Shown here: piece after piece, positions 9,854-60,164 of the stretch
How the letters are laid out: every line of letters begins with the position of its first letter
How positions within the stretch are numbered: position 1 is the first letter of the stretch
Origin: Thermodesulfobacteriota bacterium
Lineage (GTDB): Bacteria > Desulfobacterota > Desulfobulbia > Desulfobulbales > SURF-16
Direction of reading: 5' to 3'
Assembly: GCA_040755455.1 (NCBI GenBank)
Contig: JBFMAY010000011.1
Span: 15,341 to 79,340 of the forward strand
Length of the DNA: 64,000 bases
Position numbers and translations under genes: made by a program
The notes under the pieces: generated by a model
Databases searched by the model: none
Told to the model about the DNA's origin: nothing
What the model saw: only the letters and a program-made list of their open reading frames with translations

Positions 9854-9997
9854 GTGGTACTCCTCAAAAAGGACAGGGCGCCATATTCAGTGATCATCAC
9901 GCTCGTATCGCGAGCTGTCCGGTGCGGCGGCTGACAACTCGACATCCAGACATCAGATGCCTGATCCGGGCGGTCCAGAATTCCCTGTTTTCCCGGA

Positions 9998-10627
9998 TTA
10001 TATAACGGCCACTGCTATTTTGGTAATATTAAGTGAACGGCATGCCAACTTTCCGGCATTCTTTGCTGAAGTGGTCGTGGCATCGTGGGGGGGAGGGGCC
10101 TTTGGTATACAATATGATTGGGAGCAGGTATTTATTTCAATCCTCCTGAGCATTGCCAGTAGTTCAGGAGCCGTGATTTCTGCAATAGGTCGATTGCCGA
10201 CGATTGGAAAGACATCATTTTCAAGCTGCGTTAATATCTTCTCTCCGGTCTTTTCATCCCATTGTGTAGAAAACCTTTGATGCCATTCCAGGGCAACCTC
10301 TTCAAAAGTCTCCTTTTTGGTCTCTGTTGTTGATTTTCCAGGGTCAATTCCCTGAGCAAGTTGCGTCCGCGCTTCATCTCTCTTTTGCCTGGCTGCTAAA
10401 AGTGAAATCTCAGGATATGCGCCAAATGACAGTTTCTTTTCTTTGCCATCAAAGCGATATTTCAGCCGCCATAGTTTCCCCCCGGCCGAGGTGACAAGCA
10501 GGAATAAACCTCCTCCGTCAAAGAGCTTGATTTCCTTCTGCTGAGGCTTGGAATTTCGTATCTGAGTATCAGTTAGGGGCACTGTCCGCTTAGGCATTGG
10601 GGGCTTCTCCGTTTTGGGGGCCTCCAC
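9998..10627 (-). pseudogene. truncated P4-type tyrosine integrase (N-terminal arm-binding/DUF4102 part only)
   Basis: The first about 150 aa match the integrase N-terminus (LTDTQIRNSKPQQKEIKLFDGGGLFLLVTSAGGKLWRLKYRFDGKEKKLSFGAYPEISLLAARQKRDEAR). The catalytic domain is absent and the ORF tail is junk-like. It lies next to the 3' end of the tRNA-Leu. Confidence 0.75.
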
Positions 10628-10708
10628 TTTTCAGGACTTAAAAAGCCCCCACAAAGGCCCCTAAACTTGCTGGCTTATAGCATATCAAAACGGATTTTAA
10701 CGGACAAG

Positions 10709-10742
10709 AGAAAAAGAAAAAGCCTTGATTTCTCAAGGCTTT
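10709..10742 (-). terminator. Rho-independent terminator of tRNA-Leu
   Basis: On the minus strand: AAAGCCTTGA-GAAA-TCAAGGCTTT hairpin (8-bp stem) followed by a TTCTTTTTCTC run, about 35 nt after the tRNA 3' end. Confidence 0.65.
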
Positions 10743-10775
10743 CGATACTTCTCCGAATTTTGTCGGAATATAGGA

Positions 10776-10862
10776 TGGTGCCGGAGGTCGGGATCGAACC
10801 GACATGACCTTGCGGTCGCGGGATTTTGAGTCCCGTGCGTCTACCAGTTTCACCACTCCGGC
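10776..10862 (-). tRNA. tRNA-Leu (anticodon CAA), CCA encoded
   Basis: Reverse complement: GCCGGAGTGGTGAAACTGGTAGACGCACGGGACTCAAAATCCCGCGACCGCAAGGTCATGTCGGTTCGATCCCGACCTCCGGCACCA. It shows a 7-bp acceptor stem, anticodon stem CGGGA/TCCCG with loop CTCAAAA, a long variable arm, a GTTCGATCC T-loop and a terminal CCA. Confidence 0.95.
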
Positions 10863-11095
10863 TTTTTTTATTTTTGCGGGCGCTGCAGTCTGAACCTGCA
10901 ACTCTTATTGATGAGCAAGATGCGACTCGGTAATGCCTTTAGATATACTACTTCCTGTTAATTTTCAAGTATTTTTGCCAGGGGAACAGGTACGAAAAAC
11001 CGTGGACGGAAAAATCCCTCTCTCACCGCCCCAGACGGTGAACAAATAAAGAAAAACATGGCAGGCAGCAAACTTCTGCCGGTAATGCGGCTACA

Positions 11096-11587
11096 TCATC
11101 TTTGGCAGATGCCCCGGAAAATTTGGCGCAGCACCGGATCACTCAATTTAGTGGACAGCTGCTCCTCATACTCATCAACTGTCTCCGCCTCAGGAGCAGC
11201 AGACAACTGGTCGGACGGCGCCTCCCGGTTCTCCGCGACAAAGATGAAACTCTCTGGCTCCACCTGCAGCTTGCTGCCCCGCTTCTTGTTGAGCCAGCGG
11301 TCGCACTCGTCATGGCTGCCCACGTAGAGGAGGAACAGCTCGCTGTCCCGTTTCAGACTGATCAGCCGGTAGCCGCTGCCCAGGTCGTATTTCAGACATT
11401 TTCTGACCCGCAGCTCCCCGCGTTTGGTGCGTTTGTTCTTCATCGCCAGGCACTGCCAGCCATGCTCGGACAGATGTCTGATAATCTCGCCGGCCCGTTC
11501 CGCCGCCAGCGCCCCTTTCTTGTCTGTCTTGCTTAACGCCCGCAGCTGTTTCTCAAAAAGAGGTGTTCTGTAAAGTGTCAATTCCAT
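11096..11587 (-). CDS. RelE/ParE-fold toxin-like protein with an acidic C-terminal extension (orphan)
   Basis: Trimmed to the ATG at 11587 (MELTLYRTPLFEKQLRAL), because the longer track ORF overlaps the rhodanese gene. The pattern KCLKYDLGSGYRLISLKRDSELFLLYVGSHDE resembles the RelE/ParE core. No adjacent antitoxin-sized ORF is present. Confidence 0.45.
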   Translation of the reverse strand: MELTLYRTPLFEKQLRALSKTDKKGALAAERAGEIIRHLSEHGWQCLAMKNKRTKRGELRVRKCLKYDLGSGYRLISLKRDSELFLLYVGSHDECDRWLNKKRGSKLQVEPESFIFVAENREAPSDQLSAAPEAETVDEYEEQLSTKLSDPVLRQIFRGICQR

Positions 11588-42270: not shown

Positions 42271-42282
42271 GAGGAGGTGAAC

Positions 42283-43389
42283 ATGAAAGGACTGATCGAC
42301 AGCACCCTGCGGGAAGGCGAGCAGGCTCCGGGTGTGTTTTTTCCCCTGGCGGCCAAGATCAAAATCGCACGCCTCCTGGCCAGGGTCGGCATCGAGGAGA
42401 TCGAGCTCGGCATTGCCACCCCCTACAACCGGGAACTGCCGGAACTGATGCGCTTGAGCCGGCGCAGGATCACCACCAGCCGCCTGGCCCTCTGGTGCCG
42501 GTGCGTTACCGCTGACATCGACTTTGCCGCCGCATTGGCCCCGGACGTTCTTTCCCTGTCGATTCCCGCCTCGGATCTGCATATCTACGAAAAACTCGGC
42601 CGCAACCGCAGCTGGATCAAAGATACTTTGGCCCAGGCCATCCGCTACAGCCTGGCAAAAGGCATCCGCGTTGTGTCCGTGGGACTGGAAGATGCCACCC
42701 GGGCCGATGAGGATTTTCTGGCGCAGCTGATGCAAACCGCGGCGCAGGCAGGGGCCGCCAGGGTGCGGCTGGCTGATACGGTGGGGATCATGAGCCCTGC
42801 GGCAATCGCCGGGCTCATCGGTCGGATTGCCAAAATCACCCCACTTGAGATCGGCATGCACGCCCATAACGATTTCGGCATGGCCACGGCCAATGGCATT
42901 GCCGCCCTTGAGGCCGGGGCCGACTGGGCGGACGCCACCGTTCTCGGTATCGGCGAACGGGCCGGCAACAGCCGCCTGGAGGAGATGGCAGGCTACCTTG
43001 CCCTGCGCGGCGACAGGCGTCCCTACCAAACCGAACATCTGCGCCTGTTATGCCAAAGCGTGGCCCATGCCGCCAAAAGACCGATTGCCGGCTCGCATCC
43101 CCTGGTGGGCGAGGCAATCTTCACCTGCGAAACCGGTCTCCACCTGCAGGGACTGACAAGAAATCCGGCAACCTATGAGCCGTATGAACCGGAAAGGGTC
43201 GGCGGGCAACGGCGGCTGCTGCTGGGCAGCAAATCAGGCAAAAGGGCCATCCAGGACCGGCTGCAGACCCTTGGCTGCCCCCTGCCGGCAGAGAGACTTG
43301 AACAGGTCCTCAACCGGGTCCGCCACCAGGCCGGCAGCAAAAGACGGCCCCTGAACGACGAGGAAATACGAGCGATTATCAGCGGATGA
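42283..43389 (+). CDS. nifV: homocitrate synthase
   Basis: HMGL-like aldolase motifs: DSTLREGEQAPGV, RLADTVG, HAHNDFGMATAN. Length about 368 aa and nif context. GAGGAGG SD. Confidence 0.85.
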   Translation: MKGLIDSTLREGEQAPGVFFPLAAKIKIARLLARVGIEEIELGIATPYNRELPELMRLSRRRITTSRLALWCRCVTADIDFAAALAPDVLSLSIPASDLHIYEKLGRNRSWIKDTLAQAIRYSLAKGIRVVSVGLEDATRADEDFLAQLMQTAAQAGAARVRLADTVGIMSPAAIAGLIGRIAKITPLEIGMHAHNDFGMATANGIAALEAGADWADATVLGIGERAGNSRLEEMAGYLALRGDRRPYQTEHLRLLCQSVAHAAKRPIAGSHPLVGEAIFTCETGLHLQGLTRNPATYEPYEPERVGGQRRLLLGSKSGKRAIQDRLQTLGCPLPAERLEQVLNRVRHQAGSKRRPLNDEEIRAIISG

Positions 43390-43489: not shown

Positions 43490-45091
43490 TTACCACTGCT
43501 CCGGCCTTGCCAGGCCGTACTTCTTGATCTTGTAGCCGATCTGCCGCTGGGTCAGGCCCAACTCCCGGGCGGCCCGGGACTGCACCCAGCCGTGCCGTCT
43601 GAGCGACGCCTCGATTTCCACCCGCTCCATGTCCTTCAGCACCCTTGCCCTGCCCGCATTGCCCGCTGCCGCGGACACCACATCCGCGACAGGGGCCTGC
43701 ACCGCAACAGCCCTCCCCTGCGGCCCGGCAAACATCTTGTCGGGCAGATCCGATATCTGCAGCCAGCCGCTGTCCGTGAGAATAACCAACCGCTCCACCA
43801 GGTTCTGTAATTCCCGGACATTACCGGGCCAGTCATAGGCCGTCAAAAAATCAAGAAACTCCTTGGTCATTTTCACATTTTTTTCATTACGCTTATTGCT
43901 TGACCGGAGGAAATGATCCAGCAGCAACGGGACATCTTCGCTTCGCTCCCGCAGGGGCGGCAGAGTAAGGGGCACCACGTTCAGCCGGTAATAGAGATCA
44001 TTGCGGAACTTGCCCTCGACCACGGCGTTCTCGAGACTGACATTGGTTGCCGCGATGATGCGCACATCCACACTCAGGGTGGTGGTGCCGCCGAGCCGCT
44101 CAAACTGGCTTTCCTGCAGCACCCGCAACAGTTTGGCCTGCAGGGCCAGCGGCAGCTCGCCGATCTCGTCAAGAAACAGAGTCCCGCCATTGGCCAGTTC
44201 AAATCGCCCGGGCTTGGCGCTCACCGCGCCGGTGAAGGCCCCTTTTTCATGGCCCAGCAGCTCGCTTTCCAGCAGGTTTTCCGGCAAGGCGGCACAGTTC
44301 ACCTTGATAAATGTTTTGTCCTTGCGAGTGCTGGCCTGATGAATGGCCCGGGCCACCAGTTCCTTGCCGGTGCCCGACTCACCCAGCAGCAGCACGGTGG
44401 CCCGGCTGGGCGCCACCTTCTCGATGCTCCAGAAAATGCCCTGCATGGGCTTGCTTTGCCCGATCATGTAATGGCGATGATAACGGCTGTGCAACTCCGC
44501 CTTCAGGCTCTTGTTCTCCTCCACCAGCACCGCCTGGTTGCGGCTGATGGCCCGGTGCAGACTGAGAAACTGGGCGATCAGGGTGGACAGCACGGAGAGA
44601 AAACGGATGTCCTCCTCAAACGAAACATCCAGGCCAAACAGCCGGTCCACGCTGAGCACGCCCACCGGCTTGCTGGACAGCATCACCGGCACGCCGATAA
44701 AGGAAATACGCTCCTTGCTGATCTTGGACCTGGCCTTTGTTCTATTGAGAAAGAGGGGCTCACTCTGGATGTCCGGCACGACAAAGGGTGAACAGGTGCG
44801 GAAAATCTGCCCGGATATTCCCTCGTTCAGACCATATACCCCGCGCTGCTCCTCCTGCACGGTCAAGCCATAGGAGGCGCGGATGGTCAACCTTTCGCCT
44901 GATTTATCGAGCAGAACCAGGGTGGCCCGCTCCATGCGCAGGATGTCATGCACGATACGCAATATTTTGCTTAACGTCGTATCCAGATGGACCGCCGAAC
45001 CGATGAGCTGGCAGATCTCGCTTAAGGCCTGCAGCTCAAGGGCTTCGATCGTCGGTTTCCTGGAAGATGGTAACATGTTTGCTCCTGTCAT
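43490..45091 (-). CDS. nifA: nif-specific sigma-54 activator NifA (GAF-AAA+-HTH)
   Basis: N-terminal GAF ([27 protein letters not shown]). AAA+ domain with [14 protein letters not shown] and [11 protein letters not shown]-terminal [25 protein letters not shown]. Divergent from nifH. Confidence 0.85.
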
Positions 45092-45483: not shown

Positions 45484-45499
45484 TGGCACACCTCTTGCC
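45484..45499 (+). promoter_or_regulatory. sigma-54 (-24/-12) promoter of the nifH operon
   Basis: TGGCAC-ACCTC-TTGCC matches TGGCAC-N5-TTGC. It lies about 180 nt upstream of the nifH ATG. Confidence 0.75.
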
Positions 45500-49054: not shown

Positions 49055-49179
49055 TTTTTAGGTGGATCAGGTGAATAGTCTGTAGTCTTTGAGGTTTTCA
49101 GCTTAACCCCTACAAACTAAACACCTATTCACCTGCAGACTGAACAACCAGAGTATTCACTCTTTTATTGAGGTTAGCC

Positions 49180-50553
49180 ATGTTACTACGACATACACCA
49201 AAAGAAATCAGCGAGCGCAGCGCCTTGATGATCAATCCGGCCAAGACCTGCCAGCCCATCGGCGCCATGTACGCGTCACTGGGCATCCACGGCTGCCTGC
49301 CCCACAGCCATGGCTCCCAGGGGTGCTGCGCTTACCACCGCAGCACCCTGACCAGGCACTACAAGGAGCCGGTATCCGCGGCCACCAGCTCGTTTACCGA
49401 GGGCGCCTCCGTATTCGGCGGCCAGGCCAACATGCTGCAGGCCATTGACAATATCTTTGCCGTCTATGATCCGGAGATCATTGCCGTGCATACCACCTGC
49501 CTGTCCGAGACCATCGGCGACGATCTGAAACAGATCCGCAAAAAGGCGCTGGCCGAGGGCAAAATCCCCGAGGGCAAGTACATGATCAGCGCCTCGACCC
49601 CGAGCTATGTTGGCTCGCACGTCACCGGCTTTTCCACCATGGTCAAGTCCATGGCCGGACTCGCCGAGACCACCGGCAAAAAGAACGGCAAGGTAAACAT
49701 CATCCCCGGCTGGATCGAACCGGCCGACATGGAGGAGATCAAACGGGTCACCAAGATGATCGGCGTCAAAACCATTCTCTTCCCAGACACCTCCGGCGTG
49801 CTGAACGGCCCGCTGTCCGGCGAGTACAAAATGTTTCCGGACGGCGGTACCACCGTGGCGGAGCTGAAAGCCGCCGGTGATTCCGTCGGCACCCTGGCCC
49901 TGGGCGAATGGTGCTCGGCTGACGCGGCCCGGGAGCTGGACAGCAAGAACAAGGTGCCCTGCAAGGTGCTGGACATGCCCTTCGGCCTCAAGGCCACCGA
50001 CCGCTTCATCGATGCCCTGCGCACCATCGGCGGGGTGACCGTGCCCGATGAGCTGTCCATGGAGCGGGGCCAGCTGGTGGACATGATCTCCGACATGCAC
50101 CAGTACCTCTACCACAAGAAGGTGGCCCTGGTGGGTGATCCGGACCAGCTGATTGCCATGACCGAGTTCCTGGTCACCCTGGACATGTGGCCCATGCACA
50201 TCGTCACCGGCACGCCGGGCAAGGCCTTTGAAAGACGCATCAGGGAGATCACCAAGGATCTGCCCTATGCGGTGAACGTCAAGGCGGCCGGGGACATGTT
50301 CCTGCTGCACCAGTGGATCAAAAACGATCCGGTGGATCTCCTGATCGGCAACACCTACTGCAAGTACATTGCCCGGGACGAGGACCTGCCCTTTGTCCGC
50401 TGGGGCTTCCCCATCCTGGACCGCCAGGGGCATCAGTACTTTCCCACGGTAGGCTACAAGGGGGGCTTACGGCTGCTGGAAAAGATCCTGGGCGTGCTGC
50501 TCGACCGCAAGGACCGGGATGAGCCGGAGCAGAGTTTTGAGCTGGTCATGTAG
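49180..50553 (+). CDS. nifK: nitrogenase molybdenum-iron protein beta chain (short N-terminus type)
   Basis: Motifs CQPIGAMYASLGIHGCLPHSHGSQGCCAY and TTCLSETIGDD. About 457 aa. Confidence 0.95.
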   Translation: MLLRHTPKEISERSALMINPAKTCQPIGAMYASLGIHGCLPHSHGSQGCCAYHRSTLTRHYKEPVSAATSSFTEGASVFGGQANMLQAIDNIFAVYDPEIIAVHTTCLSETIGDDLKQIRKKALAEGKIPEGKYMISASTPSYVGSHVTGFSTMVKSMAGLAETTGKKNGKVNIIPGWIEPADMEEIKRVTKMIGVKTILFPDTSGVLNGPLSGEYKMFPDGGTTVAELKAAGDSVGTLALGEWCSADAARELDSKNKVPCKVLDMPFGLKATDRFIDALRTIGGVTVPDELSMERGQLVDMISDMHQYLYHKKVALVGDPDQLIAMTEFLVTLDMWPMHIVTGTPGKAFERRIREITKDLPYAVNVKAAGDMFLLHQWIKNDPVDLLIGNTYCKYIARDEDLPFVRWGFPILDRQGHQYFPTVGYKGGLRLLEKILGVLLDRKDRDEPEQSFELVM

Positions 50554-50646
50554 TGACAGGCGGCGGGGGAATCGTTGCTCCCCTGCCGGCTTGCGCGAAA
50601 ACTTATCGGCGAGCACACTGTGATAGCTCATTGCAATTCAGGCGCC

Positions 50647-50716
50647 GTAGCTGCTGGCCTTGCCCGCGATCACAGGCATCTTGTCATGGAATCGCGCGGG
50701 CATGGCCCGCTTCTAC
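50647..50716. repeat. degenerate second copy of the GTAG-type REP palindrome
   Basis: GTAGCTGCTGGCCTTGCCCGCGAT...ATCGCGCGGGCATGGCCCGCTTCTAC, compared with the copy at 24099-24170 (GTAGGAGCGGGCCATGCCCGCGAC...ATCGCGGGCATGGCCCGCTCCTGC). Confidence 0.6.
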
Positions 50717-50772
50717 TGTGCGCCTTATGGCGAAAAAGACTTTCGACTAACCCATCAAACACAAGGCATCCC

Positions 50773-51933
50773 ATGAACGCCATATCCCCATGCACAACAG
50801 TCCGGGCCTGCGCCGGTTCACAGTCATGCCGGCAGTCAGGAAAAGCACTTGAGCTGCCGGTGGCGGCCCGCGTCAATGCCAGGCTGCGCTCTACCTCCAC
50901 GGCCAGGACCCCCCAGGCCATGCTGCCGCAGGGGGCGGCGAACCGGCTTGACGACTTGCTCAGCCGGGGCGCAGACATCGGCGAGGTACAGCTCAGCGGC
51001 CCTGGTGATCCCCTGGCAGATATCCGTCCCACCCTGGAGACCTGCCGCCTGGTGCGGGACAGACATGCCGACCTGCGGCTGGGTATCACCACCCTTGGCA
51101 TCAACGCTGAGGCCTATGCCGATACCCTGGCCGAACACGGGGTATGCACGGTCACCCTGCTGGTGGAGGCGGTTGACCCAGAGCTGGTGAAAAACCTCTA
51201 TGCCTGGATCCGACCCGGCACCAGGACCATTCCCCTGAGTCAAGCGGCCCCCATGCTGGTGGAGGCACAGAAGCGGGCCATTACCGCCCTGCAACGGGCC
51301 GGTCTTACGATCACGGTCAGGACCACGGTTTTCCCAGGCATCAACGACAGCCACGTGGCGGCAATCGCCGAACGGATGGCCGAGCTGGGAGTGGGGAAAA
51401 TGGTCCTGGCACCCTGCCCGGATGAGCCGGACGCACCCAATGCGCCGGACAGCGCCCGCATGGCTGCCCTGGCCGGGCTGGCAGGCCGCTATCTTGCCAC
51501 GGAAATCATTGCCCCGGCCGCGGCCGACCTGGGCGCCACCCGAGCTGCGGCAGGAGGCGCGGCGGCTGGCATGCTGCCGCAGCCGAGCCCAACGCGGCCC
51601 AACGTGGCGGTGGTCAGCGCCACCGGCATGGATATCGATCTGCACCTCGGCCAGGCCGGCCGGGCCCTGATATACGGGCCCAGGGAAGACGGCCTGCCCT
51701 GCCTGCTGACCACCCGGCCCCTGCCCCCTCCGGGAAGCGGCAGCGTCAGGTGGGAGAAGCTGGCGGATTCGTTCACCGACTGCTTTGCCCTGCTCACCTC
51801 AGGCGCCGGTGACAATCCACGAAAGGTTTTAGCCAGCCACGGCATCACCGTGCTCGTTACCGACGGCAATGTGGAGGGCACGGTGGACGCGCTGTACGGC
51901 GGCGGCAAAAACGGAAAACAATGCCGCAGATAG
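50773..51933 (+). CDS. NifB-like paralogue lacking the radical-SAM and auxiliary-cluster cysteines (radical-SAM-barrel-like plus NifX-like domains)
   Basis: Collinear with NifB (58525..59796): LSGPGDPLADIRPTLETCRLVRD, VEAVDPELVKNLYAWIR, FPGINDSHVAAIAERMAELG, NVAVVSATGMDIDLHLGQA. However, LPVAARVNARLRSTSTA replaces LPVAPKCNIKCNYCNRK. Start chosen at MNAISPC (AAGG 8 nt upstream). Confidence 0.7.
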   Translation: MNAISPCTTVRACAGSQSCRQSGKALELPVAARVNARLRSTSTARTPQAMLPQGAANRLDDLLSRGADIGEVQLSGPGDPLADIRPTLETCRLVRDRHADLRLGITTLGINAEAYADTLAEHGVCTVTLLVEAVDPELVKNLYAWIRPGTRTIPLSQAAPMLVEAQKRAITALQRAGLTITVRTTVFPGINDSHVAAIAERMAELGVGKMVLAPCPDEPDAPNAPDSARMAALAGLAGRYLATEIIAPAAADLGATRAAAGGAAAGMLPQPSPTRPNVAVVSATGMDIDLHLGQAGRALIYGPREDGLPCLLTTRPLPPPGSGSVRWEKLADSFTDCFALLTSGAGDNPRKVLASHGITVLVTDGNVEGTVDALYGGGKNGKQCRR

Positions 51934-51976: not shown

Positions 51977-52282
51977 ATGGCAATTCCCAAACGACAGATA
52001 CTTGTGTGCCAGAGCTTCCGGGCGGCCGGCGGCGACCCCAAAGGCCTCTGCCACAAACAGACCGACGGCTTTCTGCAGTACATCGACGAAGAGATCCTGG
52101 ACCGCGGCCTGGACTGCCTGGTCACGGCAACCACCTGCCTCAAGCAGTGCGAATCCGGCCCCATCATGGTCATCCACCCGGAGAACTGGTGGTTCAAGGG
52201 GGTGGACAGCACCGCGGCCATTGACGCCATCCTGGACGGTCTCGAGGACGGTGAGCCGGCGGCGGATTACCTGATCGGCTGA
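51977..52282 (+). CDS. thioredoxin-like [2Fe-2S] ferredoxin
   Basis: 101 aa. Cys pattern C11, C25, C54-x3-C58 (ILVCQS, GLCHKQ, TTCLKQCESGP), as in clostridial/Aquifex-type 2Fe ferredoxins. AAAGGAG SD. Confidence 0.8.
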   Translation: MAIPKRQILVCQSFRAAGGDPKGLCHKQTDGFLQYIDEEILDRGLDCLVTATTCLKQCESGPIMVIHPENWWFKGVDSTAAIDAILDGLEDGEPAADYLIG

Positions 52283-52289
52283 ACGACAC

Positions 52290-52723
52290 ATGGCTGCGCC
52301 CATGGTGATCATCCGTGCGGCCCGTCCCGCCGACATTGACAGCCTCACGGCCCTGCTGAAAATCCTCTTCAGCATCGAAGAGGACTTTATTTTTGACGAA
52401 ACGCGGCAGCGCCCGGGCCTGCGTGCTGGCGGCCGAGGCGGATGGCCAGGTCATCGGCATGTGCTCCGGCCAGCTCACCGTGTCCACCGCCGAGGGCGGC
52501 CCAGCCCCTGCTGGTGGAGGATGTGGTGGTTTTGCCTGACTGGCACGGCCGGGGCATCGGCCGCCGCCTGATGGAGAGCCTCGGCGCCTGGGCCGGAGAA
52601 CAGAGGGTAAGGCGGCTCCAGCTGCTGGCTGACCGCAACAACGGCCCGGCCCTGGATTTTTACAGCAAACTCGGCTGGCAGACCACGGAGCTGATCTGCC
52701 TGCGCAAACGCCTGCCGCGCTGA
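52290..52723 (+). pseudogene. GNAT-family N-acetyltransferase interrupted by two frame changes
   Basis: The N-terminus is in frame 0 (VIIRAARPADIDSLTALLKILFSIEEDFIFDETRQR). The middle is in frame +1 (ACVLAAEADGQVIGMCSGQLTVSTAEGGPA). The core is in frame +2 (LLVEDVVVLPDWHGRGIGRRLMESLGAWAGEQRVRRLQLLADRNNGPALDFYSKLGW). The shifts lie near 52410-52420 and 52495-52510, both in G/C runs. Confidence 0.6.
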
Positions 52724-52750: not shown

Positions 52751-53218
52751 ATGACCATGGCACAGGAAAATAATACCCATATGTCACCGGCTGCTGGCCG
52801 GTCCGGCCTGATCGGCTTCAGCGATATCAAATTTCAATCCATCAAGGGCTGGGAAGAATACCTGCGCGAGGGGGAACAATACCTGACCACGGCCCGCCGG
52901 GCCTTTGCCGGTCAGCGGCACGCCTTTACCGCCGAGATCCTCTACAACGTCATCGCCATGGCCATTGAAAAACTGGTGATGTCCGCCCTCATGCAGAGCG
53001 GCCACCTGCCATACAACCATACCATGCGTGACCTGGCGGCAGCCATGGAGGAACATTTTCCCGGCCGGCTGGGCACCATCAGGGAACGGCTGCTGGCCCT
53101 TGATACCTACCAGGAAATCTGCGACCTTGACACCTACCACAGACAGCCGCCCACCATGGAGGAAATCCCGGCCATGCTCGGGCTGGCCATTGAGCTGCAG
53201 GAGCTGGTGAGCCGATGA
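52751..53218 (+). CDS. hypothetical protein, HEPN-like helical domain
   Basis: 155 aa, all-helical. The pattern ARRAFAGQRHAFTAEILYNVIAMAIEKLVMSALMQSGHLPYNHTMRDL resembles HEPN (A..A.EK..K..L...G......H.L..L). This is a weak call. Confidence 0.4.
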   Translation: MTMAQENNTHMSPAAGRSGLIGFSDIKFQSIKGWEEYLREGEQYLTTARRAFAGQRHAFTAEILYNVIAMAIEKLVMSALMQSGHLPYNHTMRDLAAAMEEHFPGRLGTIRERLLALDTYQEICDLDTYHRQPPTMEEIPAMLGLAIELQELVSR

Positions 53219-53335: not shown

Positions 53336-55090
53336 TCAGCATTTATCACCAGTCATCTTCAAAAGTTTGCCGATAAAATGATGAACATCCTCATGAATTT
53401 CATCGGGGCTCATGCTCATAGCAACCTCATCACGAATGAGCTGCAAAGATGGTGAGCCAGTTCGAAGTTGGTGGAAAAGTGAGTTGTCATCTTCGAACAG
53501 AATTCGCTTCCCATCGACCACCATGAATATATTTGCCGTTACGTTTCGCCACGTTTTTCCAGCGGGCAACGTCAAATTCTGATCGGAAAAAAAATTATTG
53601 ATGGTGTGTAACACTGGATACGCAAAAAGATTGTCTTCTTTGCTTTTCATAAGCTGGAGAGCTGCTCGCTTCCAGGCATCAGGAACCAACAAGTAGTTTT
53701 CAATATTTTTTCGCTTCCACTCGGTTAATGTAAGGTTATCAGTAGGGGGATGAAATGCATTGGCGCTATTGTCGTAGTCGAAGAGCATTAATCGTGAAAC
53801 CTCAGGGATGATCTGCTGCAATGCTGCGTAATGTTCATCCGCCCTGTTTTTCATGTTCTCTTTGCCGCCACCCCCCATCGTCTTGAAACAGACTTTGTCA
53901 ATCGCTACCTGCGCACAGCATTGAGCTGCCCAAGCACGAAGAATACGTTCATCGCTTTCCCCTTCCACATAGAGAATGTAGGGCGATGCCATCAGCCTTG
54001 CTATTTCTTCGTTGGTAACTTCCGACATTGCTCTCAACACTTCCGGTGTTGACTGAATACGCCTTGGCACTTGACTCAGCAGCGAGACTATTTGACTGGC
54101 ATCAACACCTCGCGCAAACTCCTCTGCATGTGTAGCAATCAGAAACTGAGTGTTTCTCTCAAAAGATTTTCTTTTGAAAAAATCGAGAATCTCACGTTGC
54201 AAGTTAACATGCAGATGAGCATCTGGTTCATCAAGGAGTATGGTGGTGGGTTGATAACCATACAGAAAGGCCAACAGAGTCAGAGTCTGGTGGAACCCGC
54301 TCCCCCCGGAAATAATGTCATAGTTTTTGCCATTTTGTCGATATTCAACGGTGATATAGACATCCCCTGCAGAGTCATATTTTGGCTCACGAATTTTTAC
54401 AGAGAACCAGCGTTCGGTTATAGCAGCCAGTTCCTGCCAGTCATTAGGCGATGGCCGTTTGACGATACGACCATCCGATTCTCTTTCGGGTGGGGGACAC
54501 ACCCGTAACAGTAAATTGCGAAGTACGCTTCCGGGTTGACCCTTCCCTACCTGCTGGCGAATCGGAGAATCATCTAGTTTTTTCTCGGTTGGCTCCAGGC
54601 CAGAAAAAGGGGGTACGTAGGCAATTTTGGGCAGGATCCCCTGCTTTTCGCATTCACGGAATTTTGCCCAACCATCGCTGGGAATTGCATAAATTGTTTG
54701 CGGCGAGTGGTAGCGCAACTCTACGCCAAAAGAATCTGTCGCTCCAGTCTCCATCAGCCATTCCACCCGAATGCCAATCAGAATGTATTCCTGCTTTTTT
54801 TTGCCGTTGACCATAGGCCAATGCCGATCAGTTCTATCTTTCCAAAGCAGGTTAAATTCAGGAACCGGCAAAGCAGTAAAGTTTGGCAGGACCACCTGTA
54901 CACCTTTTGTACCGCTGCGTTTCAATCTATGAAACTCATCAACACAGTACTGCCAGATTGCCAACGCCTGCAACACTGTGCTTTTGCCGCTGTTATTCCT
55001 CCCAATCAGAAGATCAAACTGGAAAAAGTCGTAGACCTGTTCACTTACACTTTTGAAATTACGTAGCGCTAATTTTGTAATCATAGACAA
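53336..55090 (-). CDS. ABC-type ATPase fused to a Toprim/DUF4435-like nuclease domain (OLD-family / fused PARIS AriA-AriB-like defence candidate)
   Basis: 584 aa. N-terminus: LRNFKSV, P-loop GRNNSGKSTVLQAL, Walker B/D-loop ILLDEPDAHLH, and ATHAEEF. C-terminus: ILYVEGESDERIL ... GGGGKENM ... LMLFDYDNS (DxD) ... RKNIENYLLVP. It is visibly AT-richer than its neighbours and is flanked by noncoding DNA. Confidence 0.7.
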   Translation of the reverse strand: MSMITKLALRNFKSVSEQVYDFFQFDLLIGRNNSGKSTVLQALAIWQYCVDEFHRLKRSGTKGVQVVLPNFTALPVPEFNLLWKDRTDRHWPMVNGKKKQEYILIGIRVEWLMETGATDSFGVELRYHSPQTIYAIPSDGWAKFRECEKQGILPKIAYVPPFSGLEPTEKKLDDSPIRQQVGKGQPGSVLRNLLLRVCPPPERESDGRIVKRPSPNDWQELAAITERWFSVKIREPKYDSAGDVYITVEYRQNGKNYDIISGGSGFHQTLTLLAFLYGYQPTTILLDEPDAHLHVNLQREILDFFKRKSFERNTQFLIATHAEEFARGVDASQIVSLLSQVPRRIQSTPEVLRAMSEVTNEEIARLMASPYILYVEGESDERILRAWAAQCCAQVAIDKVCFKTMGGGGKENMKNRADEHYAALQQIIPEVSRLMLFDYDNSANAFHPPTDNLTLTEWKRKNIENYLLVPDAWKRAALQLMKSKEDNLFAYPVLHTINNFFSDQNLTLPAGKTWRNVTANIFMVVDGKRILFEDDNSLFHQLRTGSPSLQLIRDEVAMSMSPDEIHEDVHHFIGKLLKMTGDKC

Positions 55091-55591: not shown

Positions 55592-55607
55592 TGGCACACC
55601 CGTTGCT
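55592..55607 (+). promoter_or_regulatory. sigma-54 (-24/-12) promoter of the nifE-nifN-nifB operon
   Basis: TGGCAC-ACCCG-TTGCT is a perfect match to TGGCAC-N5-TTGCW. It lies 75 nt before the nifE ATG. Confidence 0.8.
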
Positions 55608-58524: not shown

Positions 58525-59796
58525 ATGAAAAAAGACTACCGTCATCATCCCTGCTTCAACGCCGAGGTCAAAGGCCAGTTCGGCCGGGTGCATCTGCCGG
58601 TTGCCCCGAAGTGCAACATCAAATGCAATTACTGCAACCGGAAATATGACTGCGTCAACGAGTCGCGGCCCGGCGTCACCAGCACCATCCTCACCCCGCA
58701 GCAGGCCCTCACCTATATGGACAGGGTGCTGGAGCGCGAGCCCCGCATAACCGTGGCAGGCATCGCCGGTCCCGGCGACCCGTTTGCCAATGCCGAGGAG
58801 ACCCTGGAAACCATGCGGCTGATCCGGGAAAAATACCCGCACATGATCCTCTGCCTGGCGAGCAACGGCATGAACCTGCCCCCCCACGTGGAGGCCCTGG
58901 CCGAGCTTGACGTCTCCCACGTCACGGTGACGGTGAACGGCGTTGATCCGGAAGTGATCAAAAACGTCTACGGCTGGGTGCGGGACGGCAACGTGGTGTA
59001 CCGCGGCATCCAGGCGGCGGAACTGATCCTGGCACGGCAGCTGCACGCCATTGCCAAGCTCAAGGAGCATGATATCACGGTCAAGATCAACACCATCGCC
59101 ATTCCGGGCATCAACGATCATCATATCGAGGAGGTGGCACAAAAAATGGCGGAGCTGGGGGCCGATCTCTTTAACTGCATGGCCATGTTCCCAAATGTGG
59201 ACACCCCATTTGCCGATATCCCGGAACCGAGCAAGCAGCAGATGGCCACGCTGCGCAACAAGGCGGAGAAATACCTGCCCCAGATGCGGCACTGCACCCG
59301 CTGCCGGGCAGATGCCGTGGGCCTGCTGGGCCACGACAGGAGCGAGGAGATGCACGGCTGCCTCTCAGCCTGTGCCTCCCTGCCCGTCATGCCCAAACAG
59401 GACAGGCCCTTTGTGGCTGTGGCCACCATGGAAGGGGTGCTGGTCAACCAGCATCTGGGCGAGGCCACCCGTTTTCAGATCTGGGAGCAAAAAGAGGACG
59501 GCACCTTTAACATGGTGGAAGAGCGGCCGGCCTCCCAGCCCGGCGGCGGACCGCAGCGCTGGCACAACCTGGCCCGGGCCTTGCGTGACTGCCGCGCCGT
59601 CCTGGTTAATGATCTCGGCGATTCACCCAAGGAGATTCTGGCCAAAATGGGGGTCAAACCGGTGACCATGAGCGGCTTTATCGATATGGGCCTGGAGGCG
59701 GTATACAGCGGCAAGGATCTCAGCAAGCTCAAGGGCCGCCAGCACAAATGCACCTCAAAGGGGGCATGCTCGGGCGGCGGCAACGGCTGCGGCTGA
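58525..59796 (+). CDS. nifB: radical-SAM FeMo-cofactor biosynthesis protein NifB (with a C-terminal NifX-like domain)
   Basis: HHPCFNAEVKGQFGRVHLPVAPKCNIKCNYCNRKYDC (CX3CX2C), the HCTRCRADAVG auxiliary-cluster motif, and a C-terminal NifX-like region FVAVATMEGVLVNQHLGEA. Confidence 0.95.
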   Translation: MKKDYRHHPCFNAEVKGQFGRVHLPVAPKCNIKCNYCNRKYDCVNESRPGVTSTILTPQQALTYMDRVLEREPRITVAGIAGPGDPFANAEETLETMRLIREKYPHMILCLASNGMNLPPHVEALAELDVSHVTVTVNGVDPEVIKNVYGWVRDGNVVYRGIQAAELILARQLHAIAKLKEHDITVKINTIAIPGINDHHIEEVAQKMAELGADLFNCMAMFPNVDTPFADIPEPSKQQMATLRNKAEKYLPQMRHCTRCRADAVGLLGHDRSEEMHGCLSACASLPVMPKQDRPFVAVATMEGVLVNQHLGEATRFQIWEQKEDGTFNMVEERPASQPGGGPQRWHNLARALRDCRAVLVNDLGDSPKEILAKMGVKPVTMSGFIDMGLEAVYSGKDLSKLKGRQHKCTSKGACSGGGNGCG

Positions 59797-59843: not shown

Positions 59844-60164
59844 ATGCAGATAGCGATCGTTTCCACGGACGGCAAGCATGTCAATGACCATTTCGGCAAG
59901 GCAAAGCGCTTTCTCATCTATGAGGAGGGCCCGCAGGGGCTCACCCCGATTGCGGAGCGGCAGGTTGCCTGCCTGTCAACCGGCGACAAATCCCACCAGT
60001 TTGATGCGGCGCGTTTTGAGGCCGTGGCCCAGGCCCTGGCAGGGTGCCAGAGGGTTTACTGTACCCGCATCGGCGACCGGCCCGGCCAGGAACTTGAAAA
60101 ACGGGGCATCAAGCCGGTTATTTATGAGGGGGAAATTGCCGCCATCCGCGCGGCTGCTGGCTGA
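59844..60164 (+). CDS. NifX/NifB-C-terminal family dinitrogenase cofactor-binding protein
   Basis: 106 aa. MQIAIVSTDGKHVNDHFGKAKRFLIYEEG is typical of the NifX/NafY-core/DUF134-type family. It follows nifB. Confidence 0.75.
   Translation: MQIAIVSTDGKHVNDHFGKAKRFLIYEEGPQGLTPIAERQVACLSTGDKSHQFDAARFEAVAQALAGCQRVYCTRIGDRPGQELEKRGIKPVIYEGEIAAIRAAAG

Follow-up and report, generated by a model that had tools for sequence, protein, structure and literature searches.

The stretch of DNA analysed here, hereafter the window, comprises 64,000 nucleotides of contig JBFMAY010000011.1 from a Thermodesulfobacteriota bacterium (assembly GCA_040755455.1) and holds a complete anaerobe-type nif cluster, in which a gene encoding a NifB-like protein without the CX3CX2C cysteine motif is found directly downstream of nifK. 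From nifH onwards, the genes of the cluster run in the order nifH, nifI1, nifI2, nifD, nifK, the NifB paralogue, a ferredoxin, a GNAT acetyltransferase, a 155-residue open reading frame (ORF), an OLD/AriA-like ATPase, nifE, nifN, nifB and a NifX-like gene. The paralogue occupies 50773..51933 on the forward strand (386 residues and a stop codon, with a start matching the MNAxSPCT of its closest orthologues) and lies between nifK (49168..50553, forward strand) and the gene of a thioredoxin-like [2Fe-2S] ferredoxin (51977..52282, forward strand), so that the context given by an earlier, sequence-only reading of this DNA, with nifH, nifI1, nifI2, nifD and nifK upstream and the ferredoxin downstream, is correct. 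It coexists with an authentic nifB (58525..59796, forward strand), whose product bears all of the Cys motifs and scores above the cut-off of the NifB equivalog model TIGR01290. The comparisons presented here make it almost certain that the paralogue is a conserved, selected and non-catalytic protein, not a pseudogene.

The paralogue and the NifB of the window can be aligned end to end, as had been proposed, with 33% identity over 389 columns (BLASTP, E=1e-66) that span both the radical S-adenosylmethionine (SAM) barrel and the NifX-like tail, and the four matching blocks quoted in the sequence-only reading are all found verbatim in both proteins. Compared with the NifB profile, the paralogue falls far under the cut-off, scoring 109.4 bits against TIGR01290 where 343.65 bits are needed and the window NifB reaches 387.6 bits. 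Pfam Radical_SAM (PF04055) is matched at 38.6 bits, above its cut-off of 29.5 bits, but only over profile positions 46-165, and the Cys-motif part of the profile is thus left unmatched; Nitro_FeMo-Co (PF02579) is matched at 26.8 bits, barely above the gathering score of 26.3 bits. The nifX equivalog TIGR02663 does not match the paralogue at E<=0.01, while both true NifB and a 106-residue NifX-like protein match it below its cut-off. The latter is encoded after nifB (59844..60164, forward strand) and has a Nitro_FeMo-Co domain with the His of its VNDHFG motif present, so that the cluster encodes three NifX-type domains, those of NifB, the paralogue and this small protein. The Ala/Arg/Pro-rich character ascribed to the paralogue is evident in its content of Ala, Arg, Pro and Gly, which totals 40% compared to 26-31% in the other core nif genes, and its G+C content of 67% is the top value in the nif cluster.

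The N-terminal tail of the paralogue (residues 1-22; 50773..50838) contains Cys7, Cys13 and Cys19. The cysteine of the N-terminal HPCF motif of NifB had been listed as lost, wrongly, for Cys13 aligns with NifB Cys10, the "HPC" cysteine, and only its His-Pro context has disappeared. Such tails are enriched in cysteine throughout the family, at 5.4% compared to 1.5% in the rest of the protein. The tail is followed by a radical-SAM-type partial triose-phosphate isomerase (TIM) barrel (residues 23-245; 50839..51507), where LPVAPKCNIKCNYCNRK of NifB, the segment bearing CX3CX2C, has become LPVAARVNARLRSTS in the paralogue, precisely the replacement described from the sequence alone. This degenerate loop (residues 28-42; 50854..50898) has the family consensus LPVAPRANxRxRF, and a deletion of about 10 residues on its 3' side removes the NifB plug loop YDCVNES. 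A frameshift hiding the motif was considered and ruled out: translation of all three frames of 50501..51100 revealed no CX3CX2C in any of them, so the loss of the motif is not a frameshift artefact. The barrel otherwise keeps GPGD (residues 76-79), Y143/W145, Q166 and the PGxND motif with N191, as in NifB. An Ala/Gly/Pro-rich linker (residues 246-268; 51508..51576) replaces the CxxC "strap" of NifB and leads into the NifX-like (Nitro_FeMo-Co) domain (residues 269-386; 51577..51930), which ends in the basic tail GGGKNGKQCRR.

An AlphaFold2 model, built with a 99-sequence family alignment, gave a predicted local distance difference test (pLDDT) value of 87. The model is confident over the barrel (residues 23-245) and over the C-terminal domain (residues 277-375), the tail (residues 1-18) and the linker (residues 250-265) are disordered, and the linker is of low pLDDT. 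When compared with the PDB by Foldseek, the model finds its best matches in crystal structures of NifB (6y1x, 7jma, 7bi7 and 7jmb; E of 1e-16 to 4e-19), with target template-modelling scores of 0.75-0.92 and root-mean-square deviations of 1.8-4.5 Å, and its C-terminal domain matches NifX in the NifENX complex (9ian_F). The predicted structure therefore retains the partial TIM-barrel fold of NifB.

The fate of the cluster ligands was mapped on an alignment of 175 family members and 33 NifBs, with the roles of the ligands in NifB drawn from published work (PMC7145814; PMC10114646). CX3CX2C is present in 0/175 members; the radical-SAM triad (C30, C34 and C37 of NifB) is occupied by Ala, Ile or Ala-type residues in all of them, and by V34, L38 and T41 in the window paralogue, and yet the loop that carried it is still conserved. 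The plug loop (YDC43VNES) is deleted in 99% of the family and the K2 strap (C257xxC260) in >90%, the columns of C257 and C260 being gaps in 162-166 of the 175 members, including the window paralogue, where the HCTRC segment is deleted in agreement with the reported loss of the post-barrel CTRC motif. The ligands of the K1 cluster have fared less uniformly: the HPC Cys is kept in 61% of the family and the β1 His (H23) in only 22%, and the β3 Cys (C110) is represented by Gly, Ser or Cys. The window paralogue keeps Cys13 alone, with the His replaced by Glu27, the β3 Cys by Gly104 and the plug loop deleted, and with this R-C-E-G pattern at the K1 ligand positions it cannot hold a K1-type cluster. 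Patterns without the His and the β3 Cys (xCxx and xxxx) are found in 125/175 members, and no cysteine of the barrel is conserved family-wide in the 175-member alignment.

The losses are concentrated in the catalytic elements. From 49 columns conserved in NifB, 34 are kept and 12 are lost in the family, and those lost are mostly cluster-binding elements, namely the Cys triad and the deleted plug-loop segment; GPGD, Y143/W145, Q166, PGxND and nearly all of the conserved positions of the NifX-like domain are retained, with GPGD, Q166 and N191 invariant. The family is derived from a two-domain bacterial NifB, with the barrel fold and the whole NifX-like domain kept and the catalytic elements lost. 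Because the cluster ligands are missing, the paralogue is expected to be incapable of SAM-dependent synthesis of the NifB cofactor (NifB-co). The claim that it cannot perform NifB catalysis is thus upheld by the absence of the radical-SAM triad, the plug loop and the K2 CxxC strap, along with the replacement of the K1 ligands of the barrel.

A sub-clade of 22/175 members, whose named representatives all belong to the Desulfovibrionaceae/Pseudodesulfovibrio, keeps the full set of HPC Cys, β1 His and β3 Cys. Its members (P0030, P0041, P0057, P0090 and P0118 among others, with the locus L003 at 10001..11176) carry HPCF, RLHLPVA and LCLTT at these positions. They are still without the radical-SAM triad, the plug loop and the K2 strap and represent natural "K1-only" forms; as the three ligands are kept, these proteins may still hold a K1-type cluster.

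The NifX-like domain presents a different picture. A search of the PDB with this domain as a single sequence returned no match, and a profile was needed; with it, the NafY core domain (1P90; E=1.5e-11) and Azotobacter vinelandii NifX (9ian; E=5.7e-10) are matched. His291 (codon 51643..51645), within the motif DLHLG, aligns with His35 of A. vinelandii NifX (9ian_E) and with the DGHFG His of the NafY core (1P90), and is invariant in 99/99 and in 175/175 sequences. In the cryo-electron microscopy structure of NifENX, His35 of NifX coordinates an apical Fe of NifB-co (PMC13128457). Further candidate ligands or docking elements include Cys310 (LPCLL; codon 51700..51702), which is Cys in 82% of the family and in 0 NifBs, Cys337 (DCF; codon 51781..51783), which is Cys in 99% of the family and common to NifB (DCR, 91%), the basic C-terminal tail GGGKKGKxCRK, often with a Cys, and the Cys-enriched N-terminal tails. 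The family displays 33 invariant columns, many of them in family-specific motifs, and the NifX-type domain of the paralogue is apparently functional.

A search of 5.8 billion proteins yielded 854 matches, the best 120 of which were examined; all of these are of about 390 residues, share 46-100% identity with the paralogue, are devoid of CX3CX2C and have LPVAPRANxRxRF instead. Among the entries of a library clustered at 50% identity, the first true NifB is outranked by about 55 full-length representatives without the Cys motif, and the family comprises in total at least 175 sequences of full length, with identities as low as about 36%. With so many independent sequences devoid of the motifs, resequencing would not bring them back. 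When genomes, one for each species, were scanned with peptide patterns specific to the family, the paralogue was located in 310 species genomes, and the best 80 of these, on which all locus counts given here are based, are exclusively Thermodesulfobacteriota (Desulfobulbaceae, Desulfocapsaceae, Desulfurivibrionaceae, Pseudodesulfovibrio, Maridesulfovibrio, Hydrosulfovibrio and Desulfosediminicola). A profile built from the members that diverge most adds the cable bacteria (Ca. Electrothrix), Desulfocurvus and Desulfolithobacter. Every named member of the family belongs to the Thermodesulfobacteriota, and the family is specific to the nif clusters of Desulfobulbia and Desulfovibrionia.

Intact and subject to purifying selection, the gene has a fixed place between nifK and the [2Fe-2S] ferredoxin. 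It is uninterrupted in one frame at 79/80 loci, with the Cys triad at 0/80 and DLHLG at 79/80, and so the stops and frameshifts that would mark decaying orthologues are not found at those 79. At the locus L031 (4001..5234), the only one of the 80 where the paralogue is matched in two pieces (to about residue 126, then 127-386), the split suggests a frameshift or an assembly error in a metagenome-assembled genome (MAG). The order nifD-nifK-paralogue-[2Fe-2S] ferredoxin is shared by about 78/80 loci, and the genuine nifB follows nifEN wherever the locus extends far enough. In a neighbour-joining tree, one split groups all 33 Cys-containing NifBs with seven sequences scored as Cys-less, and the other Cys-less members lie opposite. 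At least six of those seven are N-terminally truncated fragments without the motif region, the seventh being P0200; the bootstrap for the exact NifB/Cys-less split is weak (12/50) because of rogue and truncated sequences.

Selection was assessed from the ratio of nonsynonymous to synonymous substitution rates (dN/dS). Compared with its closest orthologue, at locus L001 (86% identity), the paralogue has a dN/dS of 0.30, and the same comparison gives 0.065 for nifB, 0.09 for nifK, 0.10 for nifD and 0.01 for nifH. A broader set of 303 pairs was inflated by saturation of dS, and the analysis was redone with dS<0.7; over the resulting 81 pairs (dS between 0.05 and 0.7), the paralogue falls mostly at 0.10-0.33, nifK at 0.02-0.25 and the ferredoxin at about 0-0.23. 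The pooled values differ along the protein, from 0.16 in the NifX-like domain and 0.26 in the barrel to 0.40 in the N-terminal tail and 0.46 in the linker. Constraint is strongest in the NifX-like domain, and the values for the two folded domains place both under purifying selection, weaker than that on the core nif genes. By this measure, the rate of evolution in the family exceeds that of its neighbours roughly 2-5-fold, and a dN/dS near 1, as neutral decay would give, was not found.

With NifB, the radical-SAM carbide synthase, the paralogue shares its two-domain architecture of radical-SAM barrel and C-terminal NifX-like domain, along with the barrel motifs GPGD, TxET, VDxE, YxW, Q and PGxND and the C-terminal motifs HLG, RW and DC. 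Unlike NifB, it is encoded after nifK and not after nifEN, forms a separate clade, evolves several times faster, has no CX3CX2C, plug loop or CxxC strap, and bears Glu and Gly in place of the K1 His and Cys. With NifX it has in common the Nitro_FeMo-Co domain, the cofactor-ligand His, a charged C-terminal tail and the motifs RW and DC, but in the paralogue a barrel of about 245 residues, which NifX lacks, is joined to this domain, and the motifs GPREDG, LxCLL (containing Cys310) and GGGKKGKxC are specific to the family. A further likeness is to NafY/NifY (the gamma protein, a FeMo-co insertase and apo-NifDK chaperone), in that the paralogue has two domains, the C-terminal one NifX-like, bearing the cofactor-binding His and matching the NafY core by profile (1P90), although its N-terminal domain is a dead NifB barrel unrelated to the small N-domain of NafY that binds apo-NifDK. 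In nifHDKTY operons, nifY is located after nifK, and the paralogue likewise lies directly downstream of nifK. The relationship to NafY/NifY is one of functional analogy only, and not of membership.

The reading best in accord with these features, with about an even chance of being correct, is that the paralogue is a NifB-derived pseudoenzyme that carries or chaperones a cofactor or its precursor. A repurposed, non-catalytic carrier or scaffold had been one of two possibilities raised in the sequence-only reading, and the retained fold, the invariant His291 and the strong constraint on the NifX-like domain make it the best current account. The protein would make no NifB-co and would instead handle a preformed cluster, with its NifX-like domain binding NifB-co (the L-cluster) or FeMo-co (iron-molybdenum cofactor) at an apical Fe through His291, in the manner of NifX His35 and the NafY His. 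Cys337, Cys310 or the flexible, Cys-containing N- and C-terminal tails may assist in binding the cluster, and the dead barrel could be a module for shielding or docking, with NifB, NifEN or apo-NifDK as the partner. The position after nifK, mirroring that of nifY, favours a NifY/NafY-like role, in which the paralogue would escort the cofactor to apo-NifDK or stabilise apo-NifDK itself. Any such role is presumed to be accessory and not essential, given the faster evolution of the gene and the fixation of N2 by Nitratidesulfovibrio vulgaris Hildenborough (PMC10102598), whose plasmid pDV1 has the order nifK-ferredoxin-nifENB with the paralogue absent; the paralogue is apparently dispensable. More tentatively, and with somewhat less than an even chance, the family may constitute a new class of nitrogenase-cofactor trafficking factor evolved from an inactivated radical-SAM enzyme, in which the barrel cradles or docks an [8Fe-9S-C] or FeMo cluster held by His291 and the protein, in sulfate reducers and cable bacteria, escorts it to NifEN or apo-NifDK, the K1-retaining forms of the Desulfovibrionaceae being "K1-only NifB" intermediates.

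Several points weigh against a cofactor carrier. Cofactor binding is deduced from one conserved His and from domain homology, and the domain by itself is no proof of binding, as NifY and NafX have a NifX-like domain without the cofactor-binding His (PMC13128457). The analogy to NifY is drawn from gene order alone, and NifB, NifEN or NifDK might each be the partner. The barrel is under selection and keeps GPGD, the SAM "GGE-type" motif, together with Q166 and N191, for which a pure docking role provides no specific explanation. The family is also heterogeneous, and with three K1 ligands kept in the Desulfovibrionaceae one mechanism may not fit all of its members. The dN/dS of the paralogue exceeds that of every other nif gene compared, and pairs within Pseudodesulfovibrio give 0.4-0.8, in a range where dS is probably saturated. 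The only fitness dataset found in the searchable literature comes from a strain without the paralogue: random barcode transposon-site sequencing of Desulfovibrio vulgaris Hildenborough showed growth on N2 to require every nif-cluster gene for which fitness data exist, and with pDV1 devoid of the paralogue these data are uninformative on it.

Regulation of active proteins by their dead paralogues is a common pattern, and the dead barrel could in principle heterodimerise or compete with NifB as a pseudoenzyme partner or regulator of NifB or NifEN, with no cofactor carried. Such a protein might stabilise NifB, gate cluster delivery or tune the output of NifB-co. The conservation of the barrel, with surface and scaffold motifs among the 34/49 NifB-conserved columns that are kept, and the constant presence of a true nifB in the same cluster are both consistent with this explanation. 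It is nonetheless considered unlikely, since the part under the greatest constraint, the NifX-like domain with its cofactor-ligand His, is one that a pure regulator of NifB would not need, and since the gene is situated with nifDK and not beside nifB.

It is less probable still that the barrel itself continues to bind a ligand or cluster, acting as a donor or store of a K1-type [4Fe-4S] cluster for NifB or as a binder of SAM, homocitrate or Mo. The invariance of GPGD, Q166 and N191 and the conservation of the former Cys loop as PRANxRxRF lend it some weight, and residual binding is most plausible for the sub-clade that keeps the HPC-Cys, β1-His and β3-Cys set, which anchors K1 in NifB (PMC10114646). 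Without the CX3CX2C cluster, however, SAM could be neither anchored nor cleaved in radical-SAM fashion, no cysteine of the barrel is conserved across the family, and the protein of the window, like most of its relatives, has neither the His nor the β3 Cys.

That the paralogue is merely a decaying nifB duplicate whose frame has stayed open by chance in G+C-rich DNA, the other possibility raised in the sequence-only reading, is highly improbable and is refuted by the comparative data. The gene does have the highest G+C content and the highest share of Ala, Arg, Pro and Gly in the cluster, evolves faster than its neighbours and is absent from N. vulgaris, but the intact full-length orthologues, a dN/dS well under 1 (about 0.1-0.3), the 33 invariant columns and the fixed synteny are incompatible with plain decay. 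An assembly or sequencing artefact, in the form of a frameshifted or chimeric copy of authentic nifB, might be suspected in a MAG where a neighbouring gene bears two frameshifts, yet the chance of it is negligible and it too is refuted by comparison, as no alternative frame encodes the motifs, an identical protein has been deposited independently and these features are shared by hundreds of related sequences from complete-genome isolates such as Pseudodesulfovibrio thermohalotolerans, Maridesulfovibrio sp. FT414 and Desulfosediminicola flagellatus.

No description of a Cys-less NifB family was found in the searchable literature, and no curated model names the family, which is met by NCBIfam only through the sub-threshold nifB match and by Pfam only through generic domains. 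Database entries for its members read "radical SAM protein", "NifB" or "NifB/NifX family molybdenum-iron cluster-binding protein". Arragain et al. (2017) reported that 28% of annotated NifBs failed a motif filter, most of them for want of CX3CX2C, and excluded these as mis-annotated NifX; a 2024 Pseudodesulfovibrio genome paper lists the gene, uncommented, as one of "nifB_1, nifB_2", and a 2026 review of NifB homologues does not mention the family. Through such systematic mis-annotation, nifB can be over-counted when diazotrophy is predicted from genomes, or the family can be discarded as mis-annotated NifX.

The usual cast of FeMo-co biosynthesis includes NifB, NifX, NifEN, NafY and NifY, to which a conserved, dead copy of NifB in the nifHDK operon of a major lineage of anaerobic diazotrophs would be a new accessory player. 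The family is accordingly rated as a NifB-derived pseudoenzyme that, going by its domain composition, would also present a new architecture of NifX-type carrier. Its members provide natural "loss-of-cluster" variants of NifB, in a K1-ligand-retaining series and a Cys-motif-free series, that parallel engineered NifB variants. If the paralogue is truly a cofactor chaperone, it might find use in stabilising NifB-co for nitrogenase engineering.

The nif cluster begins with a nifV-like gene (42277..43389) and a divergent gene encoding a NifA-like σ54 activator with GAF, σ54 and helix-turn-helix regions (43490..45091, reverse strand). Near-consensus matches to σ54-type promoters are located upstream of nifH (TGGCACACCTCTTGCC; 45484..45499, forward strand) and upstream of nifE (TGGCACACCCGTTGCT; 55592..55607, forward strand), the former probably being the promoter from which the genes from nifH to the ferredoxin are transcribed. 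The 219-bp gap between nifK and the paralogue has no comparable σ54-type match. A GC-rich RNA hairpin (50553..50596, forward strand; -29.2 kcal/mol, z = -3.1) directly follows the nifK stop and has no U-tract, and hairpins are found at the same post-nifK position in L001 (about 9915..9945) and L003 (about 9935..9970). Through an effect on mRNA stability or through attenuation, this hairpin may set the ratio of nifHDK to downstream expression. With a promoter at nifH, none in the gap and a hairpin without a U-tract, co-transcription of the paralogue by read-through from nifHDK is plausible; the single transcript from nifHI1I2DK to the ferredoxin envisaged in the sequence-only reading is to that extent credible, and inferred only.

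Within the same gap, a 24-codon ORF, MARFYCAPYGEKDFRLTHQTQGIP, at 50703..50777 (forward strand) ends in a stop codon that overlaps the ATG of the paralogue (ATGA), and in P0014 and P0015 a peptide resembling MARFYCAPYGEKDFRLTHQTQGIP extends the N-terminus in frame. The ORF was dropped as a real small gene, for it is not conserved as such in the closest locus, L001, and the conservation of this region is probably that of DNA or RNA around the ribosome-binding site.

Downstream of the ferredoxin, the GNAT acetyltransferase gene (52290..52723, forward strand) is split over frames +2, +3 and +1, compared to an intact orthologue of 153 residues in L001 (11646..12107) with which its pieces share 69-94% identity. 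The two frameshifts imply either a pseudogene or indel errors in the MAG assembly and contrast with the ORF of the paralogue, which shows none. The 155-residue ORF that follows (52751..53218, forward strand) has no match in Pfam, NCBIfam or PADLOC and is an uncharacterised nif-associated gene, found with 39-84% identity downstream of the ferredoxin in most nif loci of the Desulfobulbales. Between the block of nifHDK, paralogue and ferredoxin and that of nifENB lies a gene on the reverse strand (53336..55090) for a 584-residue OLD/AriA/GajA-like AAA ATPase, which matches AAA_15, AAA_21 and SMC_N in Pfam and NsnB/AriA/GajA-type models in PADLOC. In the close relative L001, the same slot is occupied by HNH_2 and Bro-N genes, and it looks like a variable, defence-like islet inside the nif cluster.

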